Shown: one piece after another, positions 4,841 through 52,826 of the stretch
Position numbering within the stretch: the first letter of the stretch is position 1
Layout of the letters: each line of letters begins with the position of its first letter
IMG/VR virus record: IMGVR_UViG_3300033414_000001
Span: 1-64,000 of that record
Origin: a virus
Taxonomy: Duplodnaviria > Caudoviricetes
Direction: 5' to 3' (one strand)
DNA length: 64,000 nt
Position numbers and translations under genes: made by a program
Notes under the pieces: model-generated
What the model saw: the letters and a program-made list of their open reading frames with translations, nothing else
Told to the model about the DNA's origin: nothing
Databases searched by the model: none

Positions 4841-5650
4841 AGCGCGTCGGATGATCTCAAGGACGCGCGATCGGTCGGCCCTGAGCGGGGAGTCGGTGTA
4901 CGCGGTTACGTACACGATCGTCTTCGGGCCGACCCGGACCACGTGCGCCTCGCCCACGCGGTCAATTCGGACCACGTCCCCGCGGCGGATCTCCAGATCG
5001 GGGAGGCCTCCGGCTTCGGCCAGGGCCGCCACCTCGACGGCCAGCCGGGAGCGGACCTCGACGAGCCGTGCCTCGTTCTGGGCGCGCGCAGCCTCGCCCA
5101 CCCACACCGGATCGGACTGGCGCCGCACGCACTGGCGCTCATCGGCCCGGAGGCGGTCGATCCGCCGGGCGATGGCTGGCGCCGTCGCCGCCTCCTCATG
5201 CCGGAGTCGGCTCGACTCGGCCCGGCGCTCCAGGTCCCGGGCGACGTCCAGCAGCTCCACGCCCTTCGCGGTGGCGGCATGGCTGCGCTCTACCGCGCGG
5301 CGGTGGCGCCGCTCGGAGTGGTGCCCCACCAGGATGGGTTGCCCGAGCGGGATCCCCTCCACGAGGGCCGACCCCCGGGACAGCGCAGCCTCGCCAGCGG
5401 CACGGGCCGACTCCGCGCGTGCGGCCAGGCGATCGGCTCGTTCCGCGGAGTACTCGACCTCGCCGCCGTCCTGGACCTCGATGCCGGCGGGAACCACGGC
5501 CGACCGGGAGGGGTGGTTCCAGGAGCTCCGGTAGCTGCTCCAGCGCCACCCAGCGGAGCGCAGCGCGGCCAGGGTTTCGGCGGCCGGGCGCGTGGCGAAT
5601 GCGAGCCAGCGGCGCCCGGTGACGTGATCTCGGGAAAGGGTGGCGGTCAT
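4835..5650 (-). CDS. DUF3560-like protein
   Basis: GIPLGQPILVGHHSERRHRR motif typical of DUF3560 proteins of mobile elements. Confidence 0.75.
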   Translation of the reverse strand: MTATLSRDHVTGRRWLAFATRPAAETLAALRSAGWRWSSYRSSWNHPSRSAVVPAGIEVQDGGEVEYSAERADRLAARAESARAAGEAALSRGSALVEGIPLGQPILVGHHSERRHRRAVERSHAATAKGVELLDVARDLERRAESSRLRHEEAATAPAIARRIDRLRADERQCVRRQSDPVWVGEAARAQNEARLVEVRSRLAVEVAALAEAGGLPDLEIRRGDVVRIDRVGEAHVVRVGPKTIVYVTAYTDSPLRADRSRVLEIIRRAT

Positions 5651-5886
5651 GGCGTGCTCCGGGCGGCGGCGATCTGCTGCCATCCGCCTCCTCTGCGACA
5701 CCGCAGGCACTCCCCGGCGCTGTGCCAGTACACGGAGTCCCTTCCCCCATCGGCCATGATCGGCAGCGTTCTCCCGACGAGGTAGGGGGCCGCGATGCTG
5801 ACCGTCCAGCCGCACGAGCACGCCGGGGCTGGCGCCAGCGCTTCCCCGACCGCCTTGGTCACTGCCTTCGGTTCCGAAGTCTTCAT
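5647..5886 (-). CDS. Small Cys/His hypothetical protein, probably leaderless
   Basis: ATG 7 nt after the -10 box; CSCG...HSAGECLRC. Confidence 0.55.
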   Translation of the reverse strand: MKTSEPKAVTKAVGEALAPAPACSCGWTVSIAAPYLVGRTLPIMADGGRDSVYWHSAGECLRCRRGGGWQQIAAARSTP

Positions 5887-5893
5887 GTGCTGG

Positions 5894-5922
5894 ACTATAT
5901 ACAGACTAGACGGACGTGTCAA
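5894..5922 (-). promoter_or_regulatory. Repeated early promoter, copy 3
   Basis: TTGACA (5922-5917)-17 bp-TATAGT (5899-5894). Confidence 0.8.
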
Positions 5923-5946
5923 GGGCGCGCTCGCTCGGGTATCCAC

Positions 5947-5975
5947 TTGACACGCTGGTCGGTCCTGTATATAGT
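5947..5975 (+). promoter_or_regulatory. Repeated early promoter, copy 4 (divergent)
   Basis: TTGACA (5947-5952)-17 bp-TATAGT (5970-5975); spacer shares CGGTCCTGTA with copy 1. Confidence 0.8.
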
Positions 5976-5982
5976 ACCTCAC

Positions 5983-6069
5983 ATGACGACCACTACCGAG
6001 CAGCCCATCCTCGCGCCCGAGCATGTCATCTACAGCTACAGCCGCGCCCAGGCCATCCGGGATGGGTAG
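5983..6069 (+). pseudogene. Truncated DUF6573-like gene
   Basis: MTTTTEQPILAPEHVIYSYSRAQAIRDG then a stop inside the inverted repeat; the IYSYSRAQAI.DG motif normally continues. Confidence 0.6.
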
Positions 6070-6097
6070 TGATCAAGTTTGCCCCTTGATCACTACC
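6065..6097. mobile_element. 33-bp IS1-family-like mini element / recombination scar
   Basis: Perfect 12-bp inverted repeat GGTAGTGATCAA...TTGATCACTACC with 9-bp spacer; left end 13/17 identical to the IS end at 15536. Confidence 0.6.
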
Positions 6098-6304
6098 AAA
6101 AAGTTCCCGAGCCACCGTGCTCTTGCCGGCACCGGACGGCCCGACGATGAGTCCGACGCTCCACGGCCGCTCTTCGAGCGGCAGATTCACGTCCCATTCG
6201 ACGCGCGATTCGGCGGCCGGCGGCACGTCGAAGATCCCCCGGAGCTGGAGGACTCGCGCGGATGGGCGGATCGTTGAGCTGACGACTACGTGAGCGCGCG
6301 GCAT
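6098..6304 (-). pseudogene. Truncated ABC-type ATPase (N-terminus to Walker A only)
   Basis: WSVGLIVGPSGAGKSTVARELF then sequence breaks at the inverted repeat. Confidence 0.7.
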
Positions 6305-6858
6305 TCGAGCCCCTCCGCCAGGAATCGATCGAGCAAGCCCTTCTGGTCGGCCTCGCTCGCGCATTCGACAACTACCTGCCATCGCTCCGGAATCGGCCCT
6401 TCGTCCGGTCCGGCGCGATCCAGCAGGGCGGTCCCCGCGTCCTCGGTCATCTGCCGGAGCATCGCTGTGAGCCCCGGATCTTCCGTCGAGACCTCAGCGA
6501 TCAGCGCCGTCAGCGCTGCGTCGTCGCGGGTGGCCATCTCGGTGATGGGGTCGAGCGCCACCAGCGCGAGCTTCTCCTCCTGCGGGGAGAGTTCGACGTA
6601 CAGCACCGGCACAGTGGCGACGCCCTGCCGCAGCGCCTCCTCAACTCGGGCGTGACCATCCAGGACGTAGCCCGTGGCCCGGTTGACGATCACCTGCTTG
6701 AGCCAGCCGAGCTCGCGGAGCGAGCCTCGGAGGGCGTCCAGTTGCGCACCGGGGTGCCGCCGGAAGTTGGCGGGGTTGGCGAGCAGCTGGTCCGGCGGGA
6801 CATCCCCGAACCCGACGATGCGATTTGCGATGAGACCTGACTCGTTCGGCACATTCAC
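6286..6858 (-). CDS. ParB/Srx-like N-terminal domain protein
   Basis: NPANFRRH...SLRELGW..QVIVN..TGYVLDGHARVEEA...VPV motifs. Confidence 0.8.
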   Translation of the reverse strand: MNVPNESGLIANRIVGFGDVPPDQLLANPANFRRHPGAQLDALRGSLRELGWLKQVIVNRATGYVLDGHARVEEALRQGVATVPVLYVELSPQEEKLALVALDPITEMATRDDAALTALIAEVSTEDPGLTAMLRQMTEDAGTALLDRAGPDEGPIPERWQVVVECASEADQKGLLDRFLAEGLECRALT

Positions 6859-7082
6859 CTACCTTGGAAAGGGCAAAACCTCGACCGGACGGAACGATAA
6901 CACAGGCCGAAACCGTCCTTTCCTTGGCCGCGCGATCCCGCGGAACGCCTCGGGCTGGCCTTAGGCGTGCCTTGCGGCGCGATTCGACGACCCATGGGCG
7001 GCATCCGACTGCCAATACCGCCCCTGAAAGCGCTGCCCCATGGCGTATCGAGCCCAATGTGCTAGCCTATCGGGCGAGACCT

Positions 7083-7799
7083 ATGGCGAGACGGGCGAGA
7101 ACGCGAGAACTGTACGATCGGCTGCTCCAGGGCTACCGGGACGCTCCGGGGAACCACGCGCATGCGGCACGTGTGGCGGGCATGGAGCACAGGGCATGTA
7201 AGCGCGCCTGGGAGGAAGGGTGGCCTCCCTTGCCGTGGGCCATCCCGATCAAGGACCAGATCTACTTGGAGCAGGAGCAGGCCCGCCTCGCCGCGCTCCA
7301 GATCTCCGACAAGGACCGGGAGGCCAAGGAGGCGGCGAAGCAGACGGTGCGCCAGGCAGCCATCGACGCTCACGCCGAAGTCGGCCAAGCCGTCGTGTCG
7401 GCCCGGAAGAACGCGATGGCGCTCATGGGTGTGACGCAGGTGTTGTTCAAGGGCCTGCTCCGCCTCAACGAACGGACCTCGGCGCTCCTGGAGAAGCCCG
7501 ACACCGACCTCAAGCCCGAGCAGGCAGTCAGGATCTCGGAGCGCATCAGCAAGACGGTGAAGCAAGCGGCCGAGACGATGAAGCTCGCCATCGTGATGGA
7601 GCATCTGCACCTCGGACGCCCCACGGAGATCCTCGGGCTCACCGACGCGGATGGCGAGATGTCGATGGAGGAGGCGCTGCGCGAGATCGAGATCGCCCGA
7701 GAGGATGCGGATCGATTCAAGCAGCGCGTCGCGGCGGCGATCGGCGGGAAGCTGGAGGTCATCGACGGCGGGAAATCTACGGGAGGGTCGGGGCCATGA
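7083..7799 (+). CDS. Helical phage protein, candidate terminase small subunit
   Basis: First rightward gene upstream of terL; N-terminal HTH-like segment, helical body, LEVIDGGK tail; assignment is positional. Confidence 0.45.
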   Translation: MARRARTRELYDRLLQGYRDAPGNHAHAARVAGMEHRACKRAWEEGWPPLPWAIPIKDQIYLEQEQARLAALQISDKDREAKEAAKQTVRQAAIDAHAEVGQAVVSARKNAMALMGVTQVLFKGLLRLNERTSALLEKPDTDLKPEQAVRISERISKTVKQAAETMKLAIVMEHLHLGRPTEILGLTDADGEMSMEEALREIEIAREDADRFKQRVAAAIGGKLEVIDGGKSTGGSGP

Positions 7800-8071
7800 G
7801 CGAGGCCGTTCCGGATCCGGTGCCGCTGGCCGTGGTCCGAGTAGACGAGACACGCAAGAGGTCGACCGTGGAACTACTGGAGCGCGCCCTCTCCGCGGCG
7901 AAAGAGGGCCAAGTCGATGGCGTATTCGTGGTGCTGACCTACCCGAACTCCTTTGCTTGGCGGGAAATGTGGTCTGACGGGCTATCCAAGCTCGACGCAG
8001 TCGGACGCCTGGAGGCGCTCAAGTGGGCACTCCTGCACCAGCCTTTCGAGAAGGATGGAGAGTGCCGATGA
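7796..8071 (+). CDS. Hypothetical protein
   Basis: ATGA overlap with the upstream gene; 91 aa. Confidence 0.6.
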   Translation: MSEAVPDPVPLAVVRVDETRKRSTVELLERALSAAKEGQVDGVFVVLTYPNSFAWREMWSDGLSKLDAVGRLEALKWALLHQPFEKDGECR

Positions 8072-8158
8072 CACTGCGGTGCCTGGTGATGCGATGACGC
8101 GCTACGAGTTGACGGAAACGATCCAGGATCTTTCCTCAGAGGGAAACAACCCCGCGTT

Positions 8159-8857
8159 ATGACGCACATCCCCGGCTGTATTCGTTCGCTCTCCCTGTCC
8201 CCAGAGCCTCGCTGGCCAGTGGCGTTGCGCAATACCAGGGCGCTCCACGGCGTGCTCACTGCGTTGGCCGGCCGGCCTCACATGCCGAACATGCCGAACT
8301 TCGCTCTTCTCCCATGGCCGCACGATGGCGGATGTCTCGGCTGGGCAGTCCAATGGTTCGACGAACGCGACGCGCGGCTTTCCGGGTCGCATCATGTGTC
8401 GATCTTCAACGAGCCTCGGGTCCTGACGCTCGGGCAGGCAATCGGGCATCGCGTCCCGGCGCGACCCGAGGAGCGTTCGCACTTGATGTGTCTCGACACC
8501 ATCACGCCCATCGTCATTCGACGGACCGTCGATAAGCGCACCGTCCATCATGACTCCCCGGACGATGCGTGCCTGGTGTCAGCCCTCTCGTGCTCTTCGG
8601 CGGTCACGCTGGTGACCGGGAAGCTGGAGCACCCTCTATGGCTACGCATCGTAGGCGGGAAGACCTCGCCGCAGAGCGTGCCCGTAGGCGGCAACTGGGG
8701 CGGGGATTCGCGGGTGCGTGGCTTCGGCGGCCGGCTGCTGCTGGAGGTCGACGGCTACACGCGGTGGAGACTGGAGATCGCGCAGCTCATGGGGCTCGGG
8801 GGGCGCGTGTCGTTGGGGTTTGGGCGGTTCCGCGTCCGAGAGGTAGCGCGGCAGTGA
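8159..8857 (+). CDS. cas6: Cas6-family RAMP endoribonuclease
   Basis: C-terminal G-rich loop GLGGRVSLGFG (GhGxxxxxGhG with Arg), N-terminal LHG helix, TITPIVIR strand; heads the csf operon. Confidence 0.8.
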   Translation: MTHIPGCIRSLSLSPEPRWPVALRNTRALHGVLTALAGRPHMPNMPNFALLPWPHDGGCLGWAVQWFDERDARLSGSHHVSIFNEPRVLTLGQAIGHRVPARPEERSHLMCLDTITPIVIRRTVDKRTVHHDSPDDACLVSALSCSSAVTLVTGKLEHPLWLRIVGGKTSPQSVPVGGNWGGDSRVRGFGGRLLLEVDGYTRWRLEIAQLMGLGGRVSLGFGRFRVREVARQ

Positions 8858-9930
8858 TATCCGCTCCGAGGCTGGTGCACGAATACTGTAGCGCTCCGCC
8901 GGCAGATCTGGGCATTCCGGTCCCGGCCGCCGAACCGTGTTGGTTGTGCGGTGGTGAGATGGAGCGCGGCGTTCCGGTGGACGATTGGATGGGCGCGACG
9001 TTCACCAACCAGAACAAGATTCGCTCTCCCACTTCCAGTCACATTTGCGAAGCGTGCGTGTTCGTGACGGCGCGGTTCTCGCCGGTGCCGGGCAAGCCTC
9101 CGGCCGAGGGCAAGAAGGAAGGGCCTCGCTTTTCGAATCTCTCCCATCTTTGGGAGCGGGCGCCGGACGGGGCGATCGCCTATCGCGCTGCGAGCAAGGG
9201 CGAGAAGCCGGTCATCCTGGAGTTCCTGCGGCGTCCGCACGCGGGCGAGTGGTTCGCGGCCGTCGCCGACACCGGCCAGAAGCACGTGCTGCCATGGACT
9301 CCGATCAATCCGGCCGGCGCGCGGCCGGGACGGGTGCTCTTCGAGGAGCTCGCCATCACGCTCCCGCCCTCGTTCGGCCTGGTAGATGAGATCGCGGCGC
9401 TGCTCACAGCCGGCGCGACGAAGGAGGAAGTCGGCCGGGGCGACTACACGGCATGGAGTTGGACGCGTTGCCCGCGCGAGGTCGAGGCGTTCGAGCGTCA
9501 GCACGGTGCCAAGCGCGGGTCGTCGTGGTGGGCGCTCGCCCTGTGGCTGGCGCAGCGGGACGAAGAAGCAGTGAAGATCCGGGAGGAGCAGGAGAAGGCC
9601 GCCAGGGCGGCGAGGAGGACGCGTGCTGACAGCAGCAGATCGGGACAGCCTCATGCAGGCCACGGTGCAGGTGCTCGACGACCTGCGAAGCGAATACCTC
9701 GGGACGCCGGGGGCGAACATCCTGAGGCACTGGGACCAGATTCAGGACCGGGCGCGAATGGCGGCGCGAACCAGCTCGACGCCGGAGGAGTGGATCACGT
9801 CGCTCAGCCGCAGCCTCAAGCTCCCGGCGCCGGGCAGCTATCTCTCTCGCTCGGCGGAGCGCCTGACGAAGGCGATCGACGCGGTGGGGCCCCGCGGCGC
9901 CCGCGACTGGCTCGACCTCATGGAGCGTGA
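8854..9930 (+). CDS. csf1: Type IV large subunit Csf1 (Cas8-like)
   Basis: GTG start overlapping the cas6 stop; Zn finger CWLCGG...GATFTNQNKI...SHICEAC; ADTGQKHVLPWTPIN. Confidence 0.8.
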   Translation: MISAPRLVHEYCSAPPADLGIPVPAAEPCWLCGGEMERGVPVDDWMGATFTNQNKIRSPTSSHICEACVFVTARFSPVPGKPPAEGKKEGPRFSNLSHLWERAPDGAIAYRAASKGEKPVILEFLRRPHAGEWFAAVADTGQKHVLPWTPINPAGARPGRVLFEELAITLPPSFGLVDEIAALLTAGATKEEVGRGDYTAWSWTRCPREVEAFERQHGAKRGSSWWALALWLAQRDEEAVKIREEQEKAARAARRTRADSSRSGQPHAGHGAGARRPAKRIPRDAGGEHPEALGPDSGPGANGGANQLDAGGVDHVAQPQPQAPGAGQLSLSLGGAPDEGDRRGGAPRRPRLARPHGA

Positions 9931-9991
9931 GTACTCGCACCTCATGGCGCTGACGCGGCTGAAGGCCGAAACCCGCAAGGAGGCAAAGTAA
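9623..9991 (+). CDS. cas11: Type IV-B small subunit Cas11
   Basis: 122-aa all-helical protein between csf1 and csf2 (HWDQIQDRARMAARTS); GAGGAGG RBS before GTG. Confidence 0.7.
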   Translation: MLTAADRDSLMQATVQVLDDLRSEYLGTPGANILRHWDQIQDRARMAARTSSTPEEWITSLSRSLKLPAPGSYLSRSAERLTKAIDAVGPRGARDWLDLMEREYSHLMALTRLKAETRKEAK

Positions 9992-10974
9992 TGGAGCAGC
10001 TCAGGTACGAGTTCGTGTTGTCGGCGCAGTCCCCGATCGCTCACCACTCCGAGGTGTTCGGGAACAACGCCGTGTTGATGGACCGCAAGATCCGCCAGCG
10101 TGACGGATCGTTCGTGCGGGTCCCCATCATCACGGCCGACACCATGCGTCACGGCATGCGCGAGGCCGCAGCCTACGCGCTGCTCGATGCCGCCGGCATT
10201 CTCAATGCGGGCGGGCTCGGGGAGGCGGCGCTGCGACTGCTCTTCGCGGGCGGTATGGTGACGGGGCGCGGGGATGCTGGCGTGATCTCCCTGGAGCAGT
10301 ACCGCCGGATGTCCGACCTCATCCCCTCGATCGCGCTCTTCGGCGGGTGCGCCGACAATCGCGTGATTCCCGGCCGGCTCTTCGTTGACGACGCGCAGCT
10401 CGTGTGCTCGGAGACGGCTCACGCCTTGCCGGGCTGGGCCTCGGCATGGCTCGCGGAGCAAAAGACGACGCTCGACACGTCGCGGGCTCACGTCGAGGAG
10501 GTTCAGCGCGTCCGGATGGATCCGACGCTCGACCCGGGAAAGCGCAAGCTCCTGTCCGGAGGCGCCGAGGTCGAGGTGGTGCGGCGTCTCACGGCTTCGG
10601 AGGAGGGGCACGTCTCCGGGTCGGCCGTGACGATCGAGGACTCGAAGTCGTCGATGATGCCGCGTCGCTTCGAGACGCTGGTGCAGGGTTCGTTCCTCTA
10701 CTGGAGCGTTCACGCGACGTGCTATTCCGAGCTGGATCGCGACACCTTCCACGTCGCCCTCGCATCGTTCCTGGCCAACGCGCAAGTGGGCGGGAAGCGC
10801 GGGACCGGGCACGGCCGTCTGCGGGTCGAGACGGCGCGGGACGTGGCGGTGAGGCGGCCCGCCGAGCAGACCAATGTGCTCGACCTCGGGAAGAAGATGG
10901 GGACCACCTTCCTGGATCACGTCCGGAAGAACGCGACGGAGATCGCGGCCTACCTCGCCTCGGTGAACGCATGA
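9991..10974 (+). CDS. csf2: Type IV backbone subunit Csf2 (Cas7 group)
   Basis: SPIAH, VPIITADTMRHGMRE, LLFAGG, IPSIALFGG, IPGRLFV, GGKRGTGHG motifs. Confidence 0.92.
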   Translation: MEQLRYEFVLSAQSPIAHHSEVFGNNAVLMDRKIRQRDGSFVRVPIITADTMRHGMREAAAYALLDAAGILNAGGLGEAALRLLFAGGMVTGRGDAGVISLEQYRRMSDLIPSIALFGGCADNRVIPGRLFVDDAQLVCSETAHALPGWASAWLAEQKTTLDTSRAHVEEVQRVRMDPTLDPGKRKLLSGGAEVEVVRRLTASEEGHVSGSAVTIEDSKSSMMPRRFETLVQGSFLYWSVHATCYSELDRDTFHVALASFLANAQVGGKRGTGHGRLRVETARDVAVRRPAEQTNVLDLGKKMGTTFLDHVRKNATEIAAYLASVNA

Positions 10975-11630
10975 TCCCGCTCGCCGTCACCGCCCACCTG
11001 GCCGGCGGGATCGCGCTTCCCTCGGGCGCGCTCGCCCTCGATGCGCTGCTGATGGCGGCCGTCGCTCTGCGGGACGGCCTGCCTCCTCTGTCGATCGGCC
11101 AGGAGCGCCCCGAGATCTCGATCCCAATCGAGAAGGAGCCCCGGGGGCGCTTCCACCTCGCCAGCTTCGCCGTGGCTGACTGGGAGGAGCACGAGTTACG
11201 GTACGTGAACAAACGTTTCCCCGTCGCAGAAGCGCAGGCCCTGGCCGGCCCGAAGTTCCGACGCATCCAGATCACCGCCGGCCCGTGCAAGAGCCACCGC
11301 ATTCCCATGGAGACCGGCCACCTCCGCGGTGACGCACTCCGGTGGTGGTGCCTAGGGGAGGCCGAGCCGATCCGAGACCTGCTCGGCCTGGTGAGCCACC
11401 TGGGGAAGCGCCGCGGGGTGGGGCTGGGGCGTGTAGCGGAATGGCACGTTGAGCCCGCAGAGCCATGGCCTGGATTCCCGATCCTGCGGGATGGTCTTCC
11501 GCTCCGCTATCTTCCGCCCGATTGGCCGGGGCTCGCGTCACCTCCTCCGCTCGGATACGCCGTGCTGTCGCCGCCCTACTGGGAGCGCATGCGAGAGGAG
11601 CTGTGCGCGGTACCTGAGGCGATGCCATGA
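10971..11630 (+). CDS. csf3: Type IV Csf3 (Cas5 group)
   Basis: ALDALL, HLGKRRGVGLGRV, C-terminal PPYW; ATGA-coupled to csf2. Confidence 0.88.
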   Translation: MIPLAVTAHLAGGIALPSGALALDALLMAAVALRDGLPPLSIGQERPEISIPIEKEPRGRFHLASFAVADWEEHELRYVNKRFPVAEAQALAGPKFRRIQITAGPCKSHRIPMETGHLRGDALRWWCLGEAEPIRDLLGLVSHLGKRRGVGLGRVAEWHVEPAEPWPGFPILRDGLPLRYLPPDWPGLASPPPLGYAVLSPPYWERMREELCAVPEAMP

Positions 11631-12481
11631 TGCCCAACGGAAAGGAGGTGAGCGAATGGCCAAGGGGAAAGGAAAGGGCGGAGGGAAGGGAACTGGCTCC
11701 GGCGGCAACGGAGGCGGCCGATAGGCCGCAGTCAGCGCTGCGCCCGGAAGATCTGGTCTGGGCGCAGCTCGCCACCTTCCGGCGAAAGGTGGAACGCAGC
11801 CTGGAGGCAATCCGCAAGGCCGCGGCGATCGGGCCCGTCGGAGTCGCCTTTTCTGGGGGCAAGGACAGCACAGTGACGCTCGACTTGGTGCGGCAGGTCG
11901 TTCCGGGTGCGCCCGCAGGCTTCTTCGATTCGGGCTGCGAGCTGGAGTCCACGATGGATCTGGTGCGCCGATCCGGAGCCGAGATCGTCACGCCGCGCCT
12001 CAGCATGCTGGAGATGGCGCGCTACGCGGGGTGGTGGGAGTACGAGAAGCCCGTCGACGCTGGGTGCCCGTTCGACGCCAAGCACATCGTCATCCAGGAG
12101 CCCAGCGAAACCTTCGTGGTTCGCCGCGGGCTGCGCTGCATCGCTACTGGGCTACGCGCAGAGGAAAGCGGAGCGCGAGCGCGCAACGCCTCCTCCCGCG
12201 GTGAGCTGTACCAAGGCGCGGATCGTACCTGGTACTGTGCGCCGCTTGCCTTCTGGCGCATCGCTGACGTGTGGGCGCACATCGCGAGCCGGAAGCTGGA
12301 CTACAACTCAGCATACGATCGGATGTCCGAGGCTGGAGTGCCGCGCGAGTCGCAGCGAGTCGCCACGCTATTGGGCGACCGCGGATCGGGGATGGGTCGG
12401 CACGCGTGGCTTCGCATGTCTGAGCCGAGTAGATGGCGGGAGATAGTGCGCGAATTCCCGGGCATCGCCAGGCTTTCCTGA
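11627..12481 (+). CDS. cysH: CysH/PAPS-reductase-like protein (type IV-B associated)
   Basis: PP-loop VAFSGGKDSTV, TGLRAEES, PLAFWRIADVWAHI; true start uncertain (11627 or a later codon such as CTG 11738). Confidence 0.88.
   Translation: MMPNGKEVSEWPRGKERAEGRELAPAATEAADRPQSALRPEDLVWAQLATFRRKVERSLEAIRKAAAIGPVGVAFSGGKDSTVTLDLVRQVVPGAPAGFFDSGCELESTMDLVRRSGAEIVTPRLSMLEMARYAGWWEYEKPVDAGCPFDAKHIVIQEPSETFVVRRGLRCIATGLRAEESGARARNASSRGELYQGADRTWYCAPLAFWRIADVWAHIASRKLDYNSAYDRMSEAGVPRESQRVATLLGDRGSGMGRHAWLRMSEPSRWREIVREFPGIARLS
11656..11724 (+). CDS. 22-aa Gly/Lys-rich micro-ORF MAKGKGKGGGKGTGSGGNGGGR
   Basis: AAAGGAGGTGA (11641-11651) Shine-Dalgarno 4 nt before ATG; out of frame within the cysH 5' region. 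Confidence 0.5.
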   Translation: MAKGKGKGGGKGTGSGGNGGGR

Positions 12482-12492
12482 CCATCAAGATC

Positions 12493-13992
12493 GTGACCCC
12501 TGACACACAACTCCGATCTCTCCGGCAGCGCGCCGTCCAAGCTCGCGTCGCCCGTGTGCGGCTCGCGCGAGAGGATCCCAATACCTTTGCGCAGTTCGTG
12601 ATGCGAGACGAGGAGACCGGATCACCGATCCGGCAGGCCCCGACGCACATCGCATGGCATGACCTAGCCTCGACGTATCGCAACCTACTGGTGTGGTCGC
12701 ACGTGGAGGCGGGCAAGACCATTCAACTGTCGGTCACTCGCCCATTATGGGAGCTGGGCCGCGACCCCACGCTTCGGGTCGCCATCCTGTCGAACACTAG
12801 CGGCCAGGCGGTCAAGATCGGCAGGCTGATAGCCAAGTACATCGAGGAGTCGGAGGAGCTGCACGCCGTATTCCCGGATCTTGTCCCGGACCCCGACCCC
12901 AAGAGCCCCTGGAACACCACCAATCTCACGGTCAAGCGCAAGACCCGCTCCAAGGACCCGAGCATTCAGATCTTGGGCGTGCACGGCAACGTGCTTGGAT
13001 CACGAATCGATCTGCTCATTGTCGATGACATCCTCGACCGCGAGAACACGCTCACTCCGAAGGCGCGCAACGATCTGTGGTCCTGGTATCAGGCCACAGT
13101 GGTCGGGCGTCTGTCGTCCCGCTCTCGCGTGATCGTGGTGGGCAACGCGTGGCACCCAGGCAGCACCCAGGACCCGGGCGATCTCATGCACCGGCTGGCG
13201 CGCATGGCCGGGTGGAAGGCCGTTCGCTACCCGGTGATGGACGAGAGGGGCGCGCCGCGCTGGCCGGAGCGATGGCCGACAGAGCGCATTGATTACCGCC
13301 GCGGCGAGATGATCCCGGAAGAGTTCGCCCGACAGATGATGTGCGTGGCCCGCGACGACAGCAGCTCGCGATTCCGGGCGGAGTGGATCGAGCGCTGTCT
13401 GCGCAACGGGGACGGGCTCAAGCTCGCATGGGGTTTCGATGCCGCCAAGGTGCCGGGCTGTAGAACGTACACGGGCGTGGATCTGGGCGTTGGTCATCAG
13501 AAGTCGGACCTGACCTGCCTATTCCACATCGCGGTGATGCCGGACGAGTCGCGACGCATCCTGGGCGTCGAGTCGGGGCGGTGGCAGGCGCCCGAGGTGC
13601 GCGATCGGATCATCGACGCCCATCGGCGCTACGACAGCATCCTGGTGGTCGAGAACAATGGGTTCCAGGATTTCCTCGTGCAGCTCATCCGGAGTTCCAC
13701 CGCAATCCCCATCATCGCGTTCACCACGGGGCGCAACAAGGCCGACCCCAATTTCGGCATCGAATCCATGGCGGTCGAGCTGGCGAACGGGAAGTGGATC
13801 ATCCCGAACGAGGAGAGGCGCCCGCACAAGGAGATCGAGGCGTGGATCTCGGAGTTGCTCTATTACGATCCGAACTCACACGCTGGCGATCGACTGATGG
13901 CGTCCTGGTTTGCTACATGGGGCGCGCGCAAGGGAGGATCGGCAGGCGGACCGACGATCGAAAGCGGGCCGCTCGATACGCTGCGGAGGTGA
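12493..13992 (+). CDS. terL: Terminase large subunit
   Basis: Walker A-like HVEAGKT, Walker B LLIVDD, coupling GNAWH, nuclease YTGVDLG, VENNGFQ, DRLMASW. Confidence 0.93.
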   Translation: MTPDTQLRSLRQRAVQARVARVRLAREDPNTFAQFVMRDEETGSPIRQAPTHIAWHDLASTYRNLLVWSHVEAGKTIQLSVTRPLWELGRDPTLRVAILSNTSGQAVKIGRLIAKYIEESEELHAVFPDLVPDPDPKSPWNTTNLTVKRKTRSKDPSIQILGVHGNVLGSRIDLLIVDDILDRENTLTPKARNDLWSWYQATVVGRLSSRSRVIVVGNAWHPGSTQDPGDLMHRLARMAGWKAVRYPVMDERGAPRWPERWPTERIDYRRGEMIPEEFARQMMCVARDDSSSRFRAEWIERCLRNGDGLKLAWGFDAAKVPGCRTYTGVDLGVGHQKSDLTCLFHIAVMPDESRRILGVESGRWQAPEVRDRIIDAHRRYDSILVVENNGFQDFLVQLIRSSTAIPIIAFTTGRNKADPNFGIESMAVELANGKWIIPNEERRPHKEIEAWISELLYYDPNSHAGDRLMASWFATWGARKGGSAGGPTIESGPLDTLRR

Positions 13993-14064
13993 CGCCCCGG
14001 GAGCGGCGGGCGCCACCTCCCGATCGTTACCAGCCGTCGCCGTCGCCGTCGTAGCCCAGCAACC

Positions 14065-15120
14065 ATGGCGCACGAACGCGCAATAGTCAAGGTCCTCTTG
14101 ACGATCGCGCGCGGAGGGCGTAGGGGATGGGGGATGGAACTTCGATCTATCCGGGAGTGGGTGTCAGAATGGACGTTCACAGCGAGAAGCGTCGCCTTCT
14201 TCGTTGTCGTCCTCTTGATCTTCCGGCCAGGCGACGGAGAGTACGCGCAGCCGACGTGGCCCCGCGTTGGAATGCTTCTCGCCGTTGCCTGGCTGGGATG
14301 GATGTGCGCGGGCAAGTCCTTTGCCAAGAGCGCGACACCAATGGTTACGAGTACGTGTCGTGCGCGTTGCGAGCGCGCGATGAAGTACGATCCGAAAGAT
14401 CCCCCCGCGCCCCCGGAGCCGGTTGGGGCGCCTGCGCAGGACAGACCTGAGCCTGTTGATGGTTCGACCTCATCGACTGGAGACGCGAGGGTGTTGGTTG
14501 CCGAGTCGGAGGCGCCGATCGTTGAACTGGAGCGGGAGATAGCGAAATGCGCTACCCGCGCCTTCAACATCGTAGAGACGAAGCAGATCGAAGCGTCTCG
14601 CGATCTGCTTCGGAACGTCGTGCATGAAATATCTCGAATTCTCTACGAGGCGGGCGGCCCCAGCGCGCTTCACGTTGGCCTCCCTCAGGCCGTCGCCGCC
14701 CTGGTCGCTAGGCGAGACGCCGCAATAGCGAAGTTGACTGAGGCGCGCGCCGACGGCCGCCGCGAGGGGCTGGAGGAGGCGGAACAGATCTGCATAAGGG
14801 TGATGACGGCGCGATGGGCGTTTGAGGATCGCCCTCCTGCGCATCCGCCAAAAGCGGTCAATCTCGCTGCGGTGTGCGTAGACAACATCCATGCCATCAT
14901 CGCCTCGCCGCCCCAAGAGGACTCCGGAGCGCGCTGCGCGATGTGCGGCGCCTCCAGACACCCCGATAATCGACTTCTGGAAGCCTATCTAGCACTTCTC
15001 GCGGCGGGCGAGCGCATCGGCATCGCGGCTCGCGTCAGCCTCGCGCACGGCATCGCCGTCTTGACTGCCGAGCGGGACGTCGCGGTGTCGGAGTTGGCCG
15101 CAGCCAGGAGCGCCCGATGA
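14065..15120 (+). CDS. Hypothetical protein (possible alternative start ATG 14380)
   Basis: Long ORF with hydrophobic N-terminus and coiled-coil body; ATGA overlap downstream. Confidence 0.5.
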   Translation: MAHERAIVKVLLTIARGGRRGWGMELRSIREWVSEWTFTARSVAFFVVVLLIFRPGDGEYAQPTWPRVGMLLAVAWLGWMCAGKSFAKSATPMVTSTCRARCERAMKYDPKDPPAPPEPVGAPAQDRPEPVDGSTSSTGDARVLVAESEAPIVELEREIAKCATRAFNIVETKQIEASRDLLRNVVHEISRILYEAGGPSALHVGLPQAVAALVARRDAAIAKLTEARADGRREGLEEAEQICIRVMTARWAFEDRPPAHPPKAVNLAAVCVDNIHAIIASPPQEDSGARCAMCGASRHPDNRLLEAYLALLAAGERIGIAARVSLAHGIAVLTAERDVAVSELAAARSAR

Positions 15121-15380
15121 AATGCGCCGGCCCGAAGTGCAAGCGAGACGCGAAGCTCGGCAAGTTCTGCGGTGGACACTACCGGCAGCTCCGGAGGGCG
15201 GCGCAGAGGGGAGCGGAGCGGCCGGAGAAGGAACTGAAACCTCTCCGGATCGGGAGAGGCGTGAAGCTCGCGGGCCTCACGGTGTCGGAGGCGTGCGCGA
15301 AGGCGCTGGCGGCGAGAGGGCCGACGACGTACGAGGCGGCGAAGGGCGTGCTGGAGGCATGGGCGAGGAGGAAGACGTGA
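15117..15380 (+). CDS. Zn-ribbon plus RHH-like small DNA-binding protein
   Basis: CAGPKC...KFCGGHYRQLRR then LTVSEACAKAL; architecture like 1903-2409. Confidence 0.6.
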   Translation: MKCAGPKCKRDAKLGKFCGGHYRQLRRAAQRGAERPEKELKPLRIGRGVKLAGLTVSEACAKALAARGPTTYEAAKGVLEAWARRKT

Positions 15381-15612
15381 TGCGAATCCACAACGTGCGG
15401 CTCGGGCTGGCAACGAATAGTTCCAGCAGTCACTCAATCATTTTGGGGCGCGGGCTCAGCGACGTGACCCCGGAGTGCGGCCCGGAAGCGTATGGCTGGG
15501 ACAACTTCGTCCTAGCCTCCAAGGAAGCAAAGATGGGTAGTGGGTCAGTTTGAAAATCCCTGAGCCCCGGCCGCGCTAGCGCCGGGCGGTCCCGCCGTGC
15601 TACGCAAGGGCC

Positions 15613-15864
15613 ATGCCTAAGCGTTCAAGCAAGAAGAGACTACCAACCGACCCGAACCAACTGGCGGCGGCGATCGTCGCCCAGGCCACCGCCGAGCCGG
15701 TCACCCAGCCGACGGGCGAGCCCGAGAAGAACCCCGCCGCCGTAGCCCTCGGCAAGTTGGGCGGGAAGAAGGGTGGACCGGCCCGCGCCAAGGCGCTCAC
15801 CAAGAAGCGGCGCGCGGAGATCGCGAAGAAGGCGGCGAAGGCGAGGTGGGGCGCCAAAACGTAG
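15613..15864 (+). CDS. Small basic accessory protein typical of IS1-like elements
   Basis: DPNQLAAAIV...KNPAAVALGKLGGKKGGPARAKAL...IAKKAAKARW. Confidence 0.8.
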   Translation: MPKRSSKKRLPTDPNQLAAAIVAQATAEPVTQPTGEPEKNPAAVALGKLGGKKGGPARAKALTKKRRAEIAKKAAKARWGAKT

Positions 15865-15970
15865 ACGTCACCTATGTTCAGGCACGCGCGGTCTGCGGAC
15901 TTTCCGTAAAGCCGTACTGTTCGGCCCCCGCTAGGTTGACGAGTCTGCGGAGATTCGGTACTTAGTCTGC

Positions 15971-16384
15971 GTGACGACCGCAGACAGAGTTGCCAGGATC
16001 CGTTTTCTGGCTCGCCATCTCGACGAATTGGAGGCCCAAGCCCAGGCCCTGGGCAACCAGATCACTGAGGCAGCCCAAGAGCTGGAAGCGCTCGCGGGGG
16101 CCTCTGTCCAGGCCCCTAAGCCATCCACTGCTGCGGGGGCCAGCGGGGAGTCTGGGCTTGCGCCAGGCACGGAGAGAGCGGAGCGGCAGAGCAAGGCTGC
16201 AACTGCCCTGGAAGCCATTTCCAAGAACAACAAGCTCACCTACGCCGAGCTGTCTGTGTTGCTCTATGGAGACGACACAGATGACAACAAGAGCAAGGCG
16301 CGGAGCGTAATCTACTTCCTGACGAAGAAGGCCAATAAACTCCGCGGGGGGCCCGGAGCGTGGGAGATCACTAGAGATGGATAG
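15971..16384 (+). CDS. Passenger gene, coiled coil plus winged-helix-like domain
   Basis: TTGACG-17 bp-TACTTA upstream; GTCTGCG repeats around the start. Confidence 0.65.
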   Translation: MTTADRVARIRFLARHLDELEAQAQALGNQITEAAQELEALAGASVQAPKPSTAAGASGESGLAPGTERAERQSKAATALEAISKNNKLTYAELSVLLYGDDTDDNKSKARSVIYFLTKKANKLRGGPGAWEITRDG

Positions 16385-16430
16385 ACGAAGGGCCCCGGAG
16401 TCATGACCTCCGAGGCCCTTCAAGATAAGC

Positions 16431-16501
16431 GGGGCTAGCACGGTTGCCGGGACGGACTTTAGACACTGACCCGGGCGGTTCAACTCCGTCTAGTTCCACC
16501 A
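16431..16501 (+). ncRNA. 71-nt tRNA-Ala/tmRNA-like mini RNA
   Basis: GGGGCTA/TAGTTCC acceptor with G3.U70, discriminator A, encoded CCA, T-arm GGCGG-TTCAACT-CCGTC; central part lacks canonical D and anticodon arms. Confidence 0.6.
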
Positions 16502-16717
16502 GATTCGAGCGCCCAAAAGAGGACACCCGATCGCGCAACGATTCGGATCCTCTCACAATCTCGTGCGCGCCGTCAAGGTACGCGTGGCTGGGACGCGCCT
16601 TGGTGAGGAGGGTTCAGTGCGGAGTTCCGACCGCATACTAAGACGCTAGGGGCGCGAGATCGCCCCGCGATCAACGGGCATCACGGGAGACCCCGTGATG
16701 CCCGAGTCTGCGCTGAC

Positions 16718-16751
16718 TATGCTTGACCGCTTAAGCATAAAGAGCGATACT
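16718..16751 (+). promoter_or_regulatory. Transposase promoter with overlapping palindrome
   Basis: TTGACC (16723-16728)-17 bp-GATACT (16746-16751); TATGCTT/AAGCATA inverted repeat. Confidence 0.7.
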
Positions 16752-16757
16752 CCTGCC

Positions 16758-16859
16758 ATGAACAAGCTGACGAACGAGAAGCGGGTTGCGGTGGTGAAGG
16801 CGCTGGTGGAGGGGATGAGCATCCGCGCCACCGTCCGCATGACCGGCGTGGCGAAGAAC
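16758..16859 (+). pseudogene. IS1-family transposase 5' stub fused in frame to phage sequence
   Basis: 34 codons of HTH N-terminus, then unrelated DGYDGRHP; no DDE domain. Confidence 0.75.
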
Positions 16860-16910
16860 GATGGGTATGACGGAAGACATCCTGACTGCGTTCCAGGGGT
16901 TCGCCCGGCC

Positions 16911-17261
16911 ATGACCGACGCGCAACTGGTCACAGTTCTCAGGCGGGGCGGGTTCGCGCCCCGGGGCGTGCGCGCTCTCATGGCCGCGAAGCGCGAGTTG
17001 GAGCAGGAGATAACGAGATGCGCTGGGCGCGCCCACAATCGGGGCGAGCTCAGAGGACTGCGCTGGAGCGGGAGAGAGCTTCGTTGCGCAGGAGAACTGC
17101 TCACCCGCTACGCCATCCAGTACTCGCTGACTCAACTGTCCCCGCCCGAAGAGTTGGCCAAGAGGCTTGATGCCGGCGGCCACGCTCGGGCGGCCATGGT
17201 GTTGCGCCGGCTCGGGGACGAAATGGGAGTCCCGGCTCTTCTGCTGGAGTCGACGAGATGA
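16911..17261 (+). CDS. Hypothetical protein
   Basis: ATG 16911; ATGA overlaps at both ends. Confidence 0.5.
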   Translation: MTDAQLVTVLRRGGFAPRGVRALMAAKRELEQEITRCAGRAHNRGELRGLRWSGRELRCAGELLTRYAIQYSLTQLSPPEELAKRLDAGGHARAAMVLRRLGDEMGVPALLLESTR

Positions 17262-17503
17262 CCGACGCGCTCCGCCGATACCTAGGCCAGGTCGCCCTGC
17301 TGGAGAACATCCGCCGGGCCCACTCGGGCGCAGAAAGCCCCGAGGAGGAGTCGCTGCTCGCCGAAATGGACGCCTCCTGGGATGAGCTGAACGCGACGGA
17401 TCGAGGCGAGCTGCGCCGGTTCCGCTCAGACGAACATCTCGGTATCGATACCGACGTGTTGGCGTTTCCCGGCATACCGCCCCGCTGTCCGCCGATCGGA
17501 TGA
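17258..17503 (+). CDS. Hypothetical protein
   Basis: 81-aa ORF coupled to the upstream gene. Confidence 0.5.
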   Translation: MTDALRRYLGQVALLENIRRAHSGAESPEEESLLAEMDASWDELNATDRGELRRFRSDEHLGIDTDVLAFPGIPPRCPPIG

Positions 17504-17576
17504 CGGAGCTCTTTCGCGGCTAGGTGGCGCGTGACCGCGGGCCGTGGCACAGTATCGCCGCGGAGGCGCACGACGC

Positions 17577-19238
17577 ATGAGTTCAGGGACGATCGTTGAG
17601 CCGCAGGCGGCCCGGCAGGCAGCGATGACGGCCAGCGGCAAGTTCATCGACGGCATCGCCCGTCTCGGCCTATCTCCGCGACAGCAAGCGCTGAACGAGT
17701 TGTGGTCGTGGTACCGATGCGTGCGCTACGACGCGCGAACAACCGACTGGGACGGGTCGAAGCATGTCGACGGCCTCGACGCGGAGGTCATTTCCCAGGC
17801 CGCGTTCATCCCCCCGGGCTTCTACGACGCGAGCGGCGGCCAGGTCCCGTTGAAGTTCCGGCGCCCCACCGCGCCGTACGCGCTGGGAAAGGTCATCCCG
17901 GATCGGTTCACTGGCTTGCTCTTCTCGGAGCGCCGCAGTCCGCGCATCAGCGTGGAGGGGGACGAGAAGACCCAGGACTACGTGAGCGCGATAGCCGAGG
18001 TCGGGCGTCTGTGGCCGACCATGATCCAGGCCCGAACCTACGGCGGCGCGACCGGGACCGTGGCGCTCGGGTTCTCGTTCCACAAGGGTCGGCCGGTCTT
18101 CGAGGTTCATGACGCGCGTTGGTGCGTCCCGGACTTCAAGGATCGCTCCCAGCTCGTTCTTCGCTCGATCGAGAAGCGGTATCAGTACCCGGTCGAGCAG
18201 CGCAACATGATCACCGGGCGGTGGGAGGAGATCCCGCACTGGTATCGTCGCGTCATCGACGAGCAGCGCGATACGCTGTATTCGCCAATTCCGGTGCCTG
18301 ACAACGGCGAAGAGCCGGACTGGGAGGTACAGGAGGAGGCGCAACACGGATACGGGTTCTGCCCCGTGGTGTGGATTCAGAACCTCCCGGTGCAGGATTC
18401 AATCGACGGGGATCCGGACTGTCACGGCATCTTCCCGATGATTGAGTCCATTGATGCGCTGATAGCGCAGGGTAACCGATCCACGATCTTCAACTGCGAC
18501 CCCACGCTAGTAGTCAACAGCGATGCTACAATGTCGGATGTTTCGAAGGGGTCCGGGCATGCTCTCAAGATCCCCGCCAACTCCGGCGCGAGGTACATGG
18601 AAATCTCCGGCACGGGGCCGAAGGCCGCCTTCGAGGCAGCCGACAAGCTCCGAGCCTACGCGCTGGAGGTGGCCCAATGCGTGCTCGACCATCCCGACTC
18701 CGTGCAGCGAACCGCGCAGGAGATCGAGCGCGTCTACTCCTCGATGCTCGCCAAGGCCGACATCCTCCGCGAGCAGTACGGTCAGAGAGGGGTGCTTCCG
18801 CTGCTCAACATGGTCGTGGAGGCAGTCCGAAAGCTCGGCACTCCCGTGGCGGCCGAGCCCCAGGGAGTTGTGGGCGCCGCGATCGTGCGTCGCGTCGTCG
18901 AGCTCCCGCCTCGCCTGATTCCGCAGGCGGACGGGGAGCCGCCGAAGCTCGTGCCCAGAGAGCTTGGGCCGCGCGGCAGTACGCTCCAGCTCCAATGGGG
19001 GCCATACTTCGCGCCGTCCATCACGGATACGTCCAACTCGGTCACTGCGGCAGCAAAAGCGAAAGAGGCGGGGCTCATCGACCGGGAGCACGCCAGCCAG
19101 TTCGTCGCCTCCGACTTCCGGGTGGAGGACGTGGGGCACATGCTCGCCAAGATCGAGCAGGAGAAGCAGGACGAGCAGGCTAGGATCGAGCAAAGCCTGA
19201 TGAGTGGCCTAGGCGGGCCGAGCGGGTTGGGCGCGTGA
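17577..19238 (+). CDS. Portal protein
   Basis: ~550 aa downstream of terL; PVVWIQNLP...DGDPD, helical C-terminus, position before head genes. Confidence 0.85.
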   Translation: MSSGTIVEPQAARQAAMTASGKFIDGIARLGLSPRQQALNELWSWYRCVRYDARTTDWDGSKHVDGLDAEVISQAAFIPPGFYDASGGQVPLKFRRPTAPYALGKVIPDRFTGLLFSERRSPRISVEGDEKTQDYVSAIAEVGRLWPTMIQARTYGGATGTVALGFSFHKGRPVFEVHDARWCVPDFKDRSQLVLRSIEKRYQYPVEQRNMITGRWEEIPHWYRRVIDEQRDTLYSPIPVPDNGEEPDWEVQEEAQHGYGFCPVVWIQNLPVQDSIDGDPDCHGIFPMIESIDALIAQGNRSTIFNCDPTLVVNSDATMSDVSKGSGHALKIPANSGARYMEISGTGPKAAFEAADKLRAYALEVAQCVLDHPDSVQRTAQEIERVYSSMLAKADILREQYGQRGVLPLLNMVVEAVRKLGTPVAAEPQGVVGAAIVRRVVELPPRLIPQADGEPPKLVPRELGPRGSTLQLQWGPYFAPSITDTSNSVTAAAKAKEAGLIDREHASQFVASDFRVEDVGHMLAKIEQEKQDEQARIEQSLMSGLGGPSGLGA

Positions 19239-51193: not shown

Positions 51194-51197
51194 GCTC

Positions 51198-51578
51198 ATG
51201 ATCGCTCTTCTCGTTGGTCTCGCCTTGGCTCTGGCCGCCAGCAGTATCGCGGCCGGGGTCCAGGCGGTCCGAGCGGCATCTCTCGCGGCAGACCTGAAAT
51301 TGGCAACGGCCAGAGCCAATGAACTGACGCAGGCCGTTTCCGATGCCGCAGAAGAGCGACTCGTTCTCGTGCATCGATACGAGGCCGCAGTCGCCGACCT
51401 CAAGCAAAGCGTTGTGGAGCTGGAGGGCCTGATCGATGCGCACGCTGATCCCGAGCTTGTTCGCGCTCGCCTGCGCGAGCTGCTGTCCGGTGAAGCCTCT
51501 TCCGGAGCCACGCCCAATCCAGGAGTGCCTGGTGCCTCCTCCTCCGCCACGGCCGCTCATCCTCGGATCGGGGCCTGA
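51198..51578 (+). CDS. Inner-membrane spanin (Rz-like)
   Basis: N-terminal TM plus coiled coil at the end of the lysis cassette. Confidence 0.7.
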   Translation: MIALLVGLALALAASSIAAGVQAVRAASLAADLKLATARANELTQAVSDAAEERLVLVHRYEAAVADLKQSVVELEGLIDAHADPELVRARLRELLSGEASSGATPNPGVPGASSSATAAHPRIGA

Positions 51579-51708
51579 CGCAGGGTGCCCAGCGCCATTC
51601 ACCATCTGCTACAGCGCTTCCGAGTCCATCGCGCTCGCCAGATACATCGCGGCCATGCAGCGGTGGAGCTCGGAGGCGGCAGCGCGTTGCGGGGCGATCC
51701 CGAAATAG
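51436..51708 (+). CDS. Outer-membrane spanin lipoprotein (Rz1-like)
   Basis: Overlaps the i-spanin in another frame; lipobox-like LACASC; Pro-rich. Confidence 0.7.
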   Translation: MRTLIPSLFALACASCCPVKPLPEPRPIQECLVPPPPPRPLILGSGPDAGCPAPFTICYSASESIALARYIAAMQRWSSEAAARCGAIPK

Positions 51709-51709
51709 G

Positions 51710-52108
51710 CTAGCGATTCGCCATTCGCAGCAGCTCCGCCGCCACAAGCGCCTTCTGCATCTCGGGATCGTGTTTCGCCTGACGCAAAATCGCAATCGCG
51801 TCGCTTCTGCCTCGGATAACTTTCACCCACTCACGCACCCAGTGCGTGTTGCAGGCTCGTAGCACCATGACGCCTTCCGAGATGCAATCCCGGGCAGCTC
51901 GGGCCCCGATCAGCCTCCAGCCGCGCCGCCGGAAGTCGTTCGGATCTATCCGGTGGTATGGCCCACGCTTGAAGGGCATCCCGATGGGAGCATCGTGATA
52001 GGGGGGAGCATCATAGAGGGGAGCATTGCCGGAGAGTTGACCTTCGAAGATCGGACGACCGCACGCCGGGCAGATCGGCAAATGCGGAGGAATCGGAGTG
52101 GATCGCAC
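51710..52108 (-). CDS. Hypothetical protein
   Basis: CPAC motif; converges on the lysis cassette. Confidence 0.5.
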   Translation of the reverse strand: MRSTPIPPHLPICPACGRPIFEGQLSGNAPLYDAPPYHDAPIGMPFKRGPYHRIDPNDFRRRGWRLIGARAARDCISEGVMVLRACNTHWVREWVKVIRGRSDAIAILRQAKHDPEMQKALVAAELLRMANR

Positions 52109-52111
52109 GCG

Positions 52112-52585
52112 TCACCTGCCCGGCGCGGGAGTCGTCCCGCCGGAAGGCGGCTCCTCCACGCACTTCGCCGCGAGTCGCTCGTCCCGCCATAGCGGGTTCT
52201 CGTGCCCCGCGTCCCCGATGACGATGTGACCGAATTCGTGGGCCAGAACCGCAGCGGGACACGCTCCGCCTATCTCGATGCTCATCCGGTAGTCGTCCTG
52301 ACATCCGATCGAGCCCGGGTGGCCGCAGGCTCCTCGGAAGTCGATCGGTTCGACGCGCACGAGATAGCCGCGGATATCGTCCGGGGATCCACCGAACACC
52401 GCGACGCCGATGGCGATGGCGTGCCGCGAGTCGTCTCGCGACAGTTCTCCGCCATCCAGGACGAAACAGGCGCCGTACTCGACATAGGAGCATGTCGAGG
52501 GGTCGCCATCCCAAGCCGGAGAAACTCCGCAGCCAGCAAGAACCATCAGAAGCACCGTCGCGACAGGCGATAGTTGACGTCTCAC
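52112..52585 (-). CDS. Lipoprotein with HExxH zincin motif
   Basis: Lipobox LAGC; VLAHEFGHIVIG...HE. Confidence 0.7.
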   Translation of the reverse strand: MRRQLSPVATVLLMVLAGCGVSPAWDGDPSTCSYVEYGACFVLDGGELSRDDSRHAIAIGVAVFGGSPDDIRGYLVRVEPIDFRGACGHPGSIGCQDDYRMSIEIGGACPAAVLAHEFGHIVIGDAGHENPLWRDERLAAKCVEEPPSGGTTPAPGR

Positions 52586-52826
52586 GTGATTCCCTCCGGG
52601 GATGCCAGCAGGCTCGCCGCTTCTCCTGCTAGTTGCTCCTCGTTGTGTTCCTGTTCGCCCAATCGGCCCTCTCGGGAAAGAGGCCTTGCACCATCAGATA
52701 CCACCCTGGCCCTCGGCTGGCGGTGCTCAAAGAAGGGAATCGGGGGGGGGCGCGACAATCGCGAGCTGCGACGCGTCGCGTTCGTCCAACCATCGGATCT
52801 CGAATCGCATCCACAGAAGCGAAGGG

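Follow-up and report, generated by a model that had tools for sequence, protein, structure and literature searches.

The window analysed here, the first 64 kb of the 78,918-bp record IMGVR_UViG_3300033414_000001, contains at positions 8159–12481 a six-gene clustered regularly interspaced short palindromic repeat (CRISPR)-Cas operon that is almost certainly a type IV-B operon with a genuine Cas6 added to it. The genes are all on the plus strand in the order cas6-csf1-cas11-csf2-csf3-cysH-like (Table 1), and each was found where an earlier annotation made from the letters alone (hereafter the sequence-only reading) had placed it. That reading also described the genes as joined by start/stop overlaps. 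This held at four junctions, namely cas6/csf1 (GTGA, 8854–8857), cas11/csf2 (TAATG, 9989–9993), csf2/csf3 (ATGA, 10971–10974) and csf3/cysH-like (ATGA, 11627–11630), but not at csf1/cas11, where the csf1 frame runs to 9930, 308 nt into cas11. The record is a complete virus genome from a wetland metagenome with 66% G+C, and its 127-bp direct terminal repeats, together with genes for the large terminase, portal, major head protein, tail sheath and tape measure, bear out the claim that the operon is carried by a phage. Judging by its sequence, the phage appears to be intact, virulent-looking and of the myovirus type.

The type IV signature proteins Csf1, Csf2 and Csf3 were all detected with PADLOC/NCBIfam profiles. 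In a sequence search of the PDB, the best match of Csf2 was the IV-B Csf2 of Mycobacterium sp. JS623 (7jhy, expect value (E) 2.6e-13), followed by the IV-C protein Cas7c (E 7.5e-5), and no IV-A chain was matched at E up to 1. Placement of Csf2 in IV-B by this PDB search agrees with the earlier assignment, as IV-A structures gave no match. The CysH-like protein has the PP-loop motif SGGKDS, in which S76, G78, K79 and D80 are invariant in 11 relatives, and contains no cysteine after residue 204 of 284, the region of the C-terminal catalytic cysteine of CysH; CasCysH has been described as lacking that cysteine (PMC8175902). Neither a DinG-type helicase domain (Helicase_C_2) nor Cas1 gave a match in the complete genome in searches whose positive controls worked (RecD was not specifically searched). 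The operon has every IV-B characteristic that was checked apart from the lack of Cas6, which belongs to the usual description of the subtype, with rare exceptions allowed (PMC7038947).

Support for Cas6 from hidden Markov models (HMM) was weak. TIGR01877 matched at E 3e-4 and the PADLOC Cas6 profile at E 6e-5, with matches ranging up to E 5e-3, and the bit scores were below the curated cut-offs (18.2 against 23 for PF01881, 15 against 25 for PF10040 and 21 against 59 for TIGR01877); several relatives of the phage protein reach the PF10040 (CRISPR_Cas6) cut-off. An AlphaFold2 model built on six homologues, with a predicted local distance difference test (pLDDT) score of 84 and a predicted template modelling (pTM) score of 0.82, agrees with two RRM/ferredoxin-like domains and a C-terminal glycine-rich loop. 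When this model was compared with the PDB using Foldseek, the top matches were nearly all Cas6-family endoribonucleases at probability 1.0 and a template modelling (TM) score of ~0.6. The best was 3zfv (E 7e-9, TM 0.62), others included 6fjw, 4ilr and 4c9d, and generic Cas6 proteins ranked far above the IV-A protein Csf5 (6njy), which was found only at rank 41. As the HMM evidence alone is marginal, the identity of Cas6 was accepted because of the structure model and the Foldseek matches, which confirm the Cas6/RAMP fold proposed earlier for the 8159–8857 protein. The residues His30, Trp62, Pro117, Gly191, G212, G214, G220 and G222 are invariant in 36 members of the family with 29–58% identity. 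His30 is located at the start of helix 1 in the first RRM of the model, and in characterised Cas6 enzymes catalytic residues lie in the region where this helix starts.

Table 1. Features of the csf operon, in positions of the 64-kb window
Feature	Position	Strand	Description
cas6	8159–8857	+	232 aa; weak HMM matches, AlphaFold2 fold, family conservation
csf1	8854–9930	+	358-aa Cas8-like large subunit; PADLOC Csf1_0_IV E 7e-20 over residues 21–241
beta-sliding-clamp-binding-like motif QLSLSL	9835–9852	+	csf1 frame, Csf1 residues 328–333
cas11	9623–9991	+	122-aa type IV small subunit; PADLOC Cas11_1_IV E 1.5e-6
csf2	9991–10974	+	327-aa type IV Cas7 backbone; PADLOC E 2e-44, TIGR03115 E 6.5e-14
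csf3	10971–11630	+	219-aa type IV Cas5; PADLOC Csf3_0_IV E 4e-36, TIGR03116 E 1.5e-9
cysH-like (CasCysH)	11627–12481	+	284-aa PP-loop protein; Pfam PAPS_reduct E 8e-14

When 1.8 billion representative proteins were searched with a profile, a Cas6 family of 299 clusters at 50% identity was recovered. All five near homologues of the phage Cas6 were directly inside IV-B cassettes. The four matches in metagenome-assembled genomes (MAGs), where the relatives carried the labels Xanthobacteraceae, Deltaproteobacteria and Bacteroidetes, were likewise all in csf/cysH cassettes, as were two of the three distant members sampled, the contig of the third stopping one unidentified gene past cas6. Wherever the neighbourhood was readable, the family is strictly linked to IV-B cassettes; no member was matched on the plasmids in PLSDB. 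Gene order in relatives, which the sequence-only reading had pointed to as informative, was surveyed in 35 related IMG/VR loci collected with a Csf2 profile. Cas6 was found in 19 of them, in one of three positions, either before csf1 as in the window, between csf3 and cysH, or after cysH, and its retention in three positions argues that it works together with the operon and is not next to it by chance. In one locus (L003) Cas6 is 48% identical to that in the window and Csf2 only 30%, which indicates that cas6 moves between cassettes. In this clade, most of it viral, Cas6 is thus a regular accessory that is specific to IV-B.

An N-terminal extension of 70–130 residues that is CxxC-rich (zinc-ribbon-like) is present in most proteins of this family, including P0005 and P0006, but is missing from the Cas6 in the window. 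Elsewhere in the window, a 24/26-nt match to the interior of cas6 (8349–8374, plus strand) was found at 52772–52797 on the minus strand, beside a C9 run. It is within a gap of ~2 kb (51194–53155) that separates the lysis genes from the leftward genes and in which no coding frame is convincing. A second copy of Cas6 at 52.8 kb was considered and rejected, as the match has no protein-level support.

The folded core of Csf1 comprises residues 1–262 and includes a CxxC...CxxC zinc ribbon in which C29, C32, C65 and C68 are invariant. Homology stops near residue 260 and the frame remains open for ~100 codons into cas11, so that residues 269–358, a tail of ~90 residues, are encoded in a frame overlapping cas11. 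In an AlphaFold2 model the pLDDT is >90 for the core and <50 for the tail, which is predicted to be disordered; a low-confidence disordered tail is the usual setting of a short linear motif. The GTG start of cas11 is 5 nt past GAGGAGGA and its frame is +1 relative to csf1, a relation shared by all related loci that have csf1 and cas11 as separate genes. This +1 relation prompted us to consider a programmed frameshift leading to a Csf1-Cas11 fusion, but this was dropped as the tail in the csf1 frame itself contains a conserved motif, and plain read-on is preferred. In one locus (L019/L070, csf1 from ~5019) Cas11 instead continues the Csf1 C-terminus as an in-frame fusion, and no clamp-type motif is present. 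The overlap also matters for annotation, since gene callers missed csf1 entirely in two relatives (L003 and L004), so that the tail would be overlooked.

The csf1 frame extends 60–130 codons into cas11 without a stop in 31 distinct loci. A strict Q[LIM][SDGTA]LF motif was found in this frame in 17 of the 31 and a relaxed clamp-type motif in 26, and neither was found in the other two frames of the same loci. Composition-preserving shuffles gave 0.0015 strict and 0.14 relaxed matches per set. An alignment of 18 tails shows no variation at Q328 or L331, and the tails of relatives end in or near QLDLF, QLSLF, QLGLF or QLTLF; in the very divergent L003 (Csf1 29% identical) the tail still ends in QLDLFA. 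This consensus equals the bacterial beta-clamp-binding motif, reportedly given by Dalrymple and colleagues in 2001 as QL[SD]LF or QLxLxL. Clamp-binding examples are QLGLF in Pol II and QLSLPL in Hda. No link between Csf1, IV-B or any Cas protein and a sliding-clamp motif was found in the papers searched. The one clamp-domain profile tested gave no match to a phage-encoded clamp, which makes the host clamp the likelier target. Neither the read-on of csf1 into cas11 nor the clamp-type motif had been noted in the sequence-only reading.

The tail could instead be an accident of a GC-rich overlap, with the QLxLF-like string a shadow of a conserved Ser-rich loop of Cas11 and no role in clamp binding. 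The G+C content at third codon positions (GC3) of cas11 is 0.88, which makes stop codons uncommon in the csf1 frame, and the open frame by itself is weak evidence for a coding tail. Other conservation in the tail (ALGP) is forced by the conserved HWDQ of Cas11, and the motif falls on one Cas11 column. However, in the window QLSLSL overlies a variable Ser-rich loop of Cas11, and across relatives Cas11 varies at this point (sylsrs, sstcsa, sdlssa and ssacga, among others) whereas the csf1 frame always encodes Q, L and L/F, indicating that the constraint acts on the csf1 frame. In several loci the csf1 stop comes right after QLSLF or QLDLF, and the consensus equals the known clamp-binding pentapeptide, with the strict form far more frequent than in the shuffles. 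On these grounds an accidental origin appears very unlikely.

No spaced repeats were detected in the whole 78,918 bp by three methods (TRF, repeat finding and our own spaced-repeat scan), so the earlier observation that no array was visible holds beyond the 64-kb window. The scans were extended to two further viral records and to all fetched loci, and there was no array in any Cas6-bearing locus, nor in the two complete terminal-repeat phages (78.9 and 84.2 kb). Array candidates in Cas6-bearing relatives were 63-nt coding repeats or an iteron-like cluster and were rejected. One cluster (L031 3353–3534; G001:63353–63534) consists of ~9 copies of the palindrome CCGGAGTACTCCGG and variants at 10–11-nt spacing and is iteron/operator-like, not a CRISPR array. 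The 8-nt tag ATTGAAAS of type I/III systems occurs once, inside the tape-measure gene. What the sequence-only reading had described, a type IV-B-like effector operon with Cas6 and no visible array on an intact-looking myovirus, was thus recovered, and adaptation genes and DinG were absent as well.

An apparently intact Cas6 on a phage that has no array would suit capture of host guides, in which the phage Cas6 cuts host precursor CRISPR RNA (pre-crRNA) and the Csf complex loads the guides, either to sequester them as an anti-CRISPR or to target rival elements. The Cas6 fold, nearest to generic type I/III Cas6 and not to IV-A Csf5, would agree with this, and published work has both raised a sponge role and noted that IV-B correlates negatively with other CRISPR systems (PMC7038947; PMC8175902). 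The sequence-only reading had suggested sequestration of host pre-crRNA, hijack of host guides or use of a phage non-coding RNA; no repeat-like substrate encoded by the phage was found. We nevertheless consider host capture unlikely. The Cas6 family is confined to IV-B cassettes, between which it moves, as in L003, unlike the repeated host captures of IV-A2/A3. Its relatives are in MAGs of the three different groups named above, which would be expected to have different repeats. Many bacteria lack CRISPR altogether, and the CysH-like protein and the clamp motif are both left unexplained.

We favour, with a probability of roughly one half, a different explanation, namely a phage IV-B Csf ribonucleoprotein (RNP) with two additions, a dedicated Cas6 and a Csf1 tail with a clamp motif. 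Cas6 would bind and cut a hairpin in an RNA other than a phage CRISPR array, and would be active and either stay with the RNA or hand it to the complex; that Cas6 is functional and loads one specific RNA is the prediction we consider probable. A Csf2/Cas11 filament would then form on the Cas6-defined RNA, with Csf3 and Csf1 at one end. The long 358-aa Csf1 would be made by reading on through cas11, and its tail motif would bind DnaN, anchoring the complex with its RNA on the host sliding clamp and so at replicating DNA. Docking of the tail on the beta clamp is putative, and we hold it to be slightly more likely than not. There the nuclease-free complex and its CysH-like PP-loop partner may act on nucleic acid, with the CysH-like protein as the effector. 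The whole chain taken together, from IV-B complex through a Cas6 that loads a specific RNA to clamp docking, is doubtful. As a model for the subtype, IV-B would be a replisome-tethered RNP in which the Csf filament pairs the Cas6-supplied RNA with nucleic acid exposed at the fork and the CysH-like enzyme chemically marks or blocks the target; this more speculative proposal we regard as unlikely to hold in full.

Several observations weigh against the favoured explanation. The motif in the window is the weaker hexapeptide QLSLSL, which lacks the Phe and is not terminal but 31 residues short of the stop, and the Csf1 of a Rhodococcus (actinobacterial) plasmid IV-B system has no tail, so that a tail is not common to IV-B as a whole. 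Sixteen of the 35 related loci lack Cas6, and in a complete phage (G001) cas6 is split over two frames near residue 95–100 and is either a pseudogene or affected by a sequencing error, indicating that Cas6 is dispensable in some lineages. According to the summary of PMC7937560 in PMC8175902, the IV-B complex whose structure has been solved, that of JS623, binds heterogeneous RNA and assembles without Cas6. The searches for a substrate RNA were also negative. A hammerhead ribozyme (described below) was the sole match in Rfam searches for a single repeat unit or a known RNA, made at the gathering thresholds and at E up to 5, and no Rfam CRISPR-DR family matched in the 64-kb window. No hairpin upstream or downstream of cas6 was shared among the related loci, and no non-coding DNA was conserved between the phage and these loci.

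The missing and broken cas6 genes, the assembly of the JS623 complex on heterogeneous RNA and the failure of repeat, Rfam, hairpin and non-coding conservation searches to reveal a substrate would all be expected if Cas6 were a decaying relic of an array-dependent ancestor, adding nothing to a complex that uses any RNA. A relic is at odds with the size of the family and with the invariance of His30 and the glycine-rich loop. The reading frame in the window is intact and tightly coupled to csf1 by its GTGA overlap, and the gene has been kept in three operon positions. These features argue for purifying selection and repeated re-use, not decay, and we judge a relic to be decidedly unlikely. In G001 itself, an 84.2-kb terminal-repeat phage (L010 7884–8542; G001:48751–49451), the gene order is csf1-cas11-csf2-csf3-cas6-cysH.

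Type IV-B is the one common CRISPR-Cas subtype for which no RNA partner, target or function is known, and later reviews still assign it no function (PMC11656645; PMC12669027). A conserved IV-B-specific Cas6 in more than half of the loci of this clade offers an experimental handle, as whatever RNA it cleaves is probably what the complex naturally carries. The clamp-type motif, conserved in the csf1 frame, points to replicating DNA as the site of action. If correct, a replisome-tethered machine would be the first mechanism for type IV-B, and csf1/cas11 would be a cas gene pair with conserved dual coding.

IV-B systems are reported on plasmids and sometimes prophages (PMC7038947). Viral IV-B systems have been reported in Bathyarchaeia viruses and 'several lytic phages' (PMC10848311). 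The proposal that the operon may be an undescribed Cas6-bearing IV-B variant was not supported as worded, since 12 instances of Cas6 in IV-B loci (Pinilla-Redondo 2020, PMC7038947) and IV-B on prophages, lytic phages and archaeal viruses (PMC10848311; PMC11656645) are in print. The phage operon is a variant, not a new kind. The 12 loci, to which that paper gives one sentence, resemble the phage operon in combining a IV-B cassette with Cas6 and no array; in the present viral clade, however, Cas6 is not rare and forms a family of its own.

The closest characterised system is the IV-B locus on the plasmid of Mycobacterium sp. JS623 (7JHY; PMC7937560; PMC8175902), which has the same four effector genes and a PP-loop CysH-like gene and, like the phage operon, has no array, adaptation genes, nuclease or DinG. 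Compared with plasmid IV-B, the phage operon adds Cas6 and adjoins the terminase gene of a tailed phage, its Csf2 is only 24–27% identical to the IV-B Csf2 proteins of PLSDB plasmids, and its Csf1 has the overprinted clamp-motif tail that the Rhodococcus plasmid protein lacks. With type IV-A (Csf1/2/3, Cas6/Csf5, DinG and an array) it shares a type IV effector and a Cas6 that would define the 3' hairpin of the CRISPR RNA (crRNA), but it has no DinG, array or IV-A-type Csf2 match and contains Cas11 and CysH instead. The IV-B system of the Bathyarchaeia 'Fuxiviridae' virus (PMC10848311) also combines IV-B with a CysH-like gene on a viral genome; it has a two-repeat mini-array and no reported Cas6, whereas the phage operon has Cas6 and no array. 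The Csf1 tail resembles beta-clamp-binding proteins in having a consensus short motif in a disordered terminal region, and differs from them in that the motif is overprinted on another cas gene; its clamp binding is putative.

Among Cas6-bearing relatives the closest is L004, with a Csf2 that is 70% identical; just after its csf3, in the place expected for the cysH-like gene, is a gene for a radical S-adenosylmethionine (SAM) protein of 578 aa (L004 4272–6008). A viral locus listed for the closest Csf2 (60% identity; L008 4674–10994, on the same contig as L038) carries csf1-cas11-csf2-csf3 together with a divergent cysH-like gene. After these come a gene for a Cas12f/Cas12u1-like protein of 665 aa (PADLOC E 7e-45) and a CRISPR array of six repeats with a GTGATC...GATCAC hairpin, and Cas6 is absent. 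In a subgroup with neither Cas6 nor a Csf1 tail (L011-L014 and L016), a second cysH-like gene is often found 3–4 kb downstream of the first.

In the phage genome, a ParB-like gene is located upstream of the csf operon and the large terminase gene (12433–13992) directly after it, with the portal, major head, tail sheath and tape-measure genes downstream. The terminase is only 24–27% identical to those of the closest cultured phages, so that the phage has no close cultured relative, and among cultured phages only Skermania phage SPI1 had a match to Csf2, a distant one. No terminator-like site was found on the plus strand in 5500–17600, and the cas operon may therefore be co-transcribed with the packaging genes. 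Two outward-facing, back-to-back sigma-70-type promoters close to consensus (TTGACA-17-TATAGT, 11/12 matches each) were found at 5894–5922 (minus strand) and 5947–5975 (plus strand), and a 32-nt copy, 91% identical and in the opposite orientation, is at 1840–1871. The hammerhead ribozyme is of type II (Rfam RF02276) and is located at 1302–1368 of the window on the minus strand, with the full model matched at 43 bits against a gathering threshold of 37 (E 1.9e-5).

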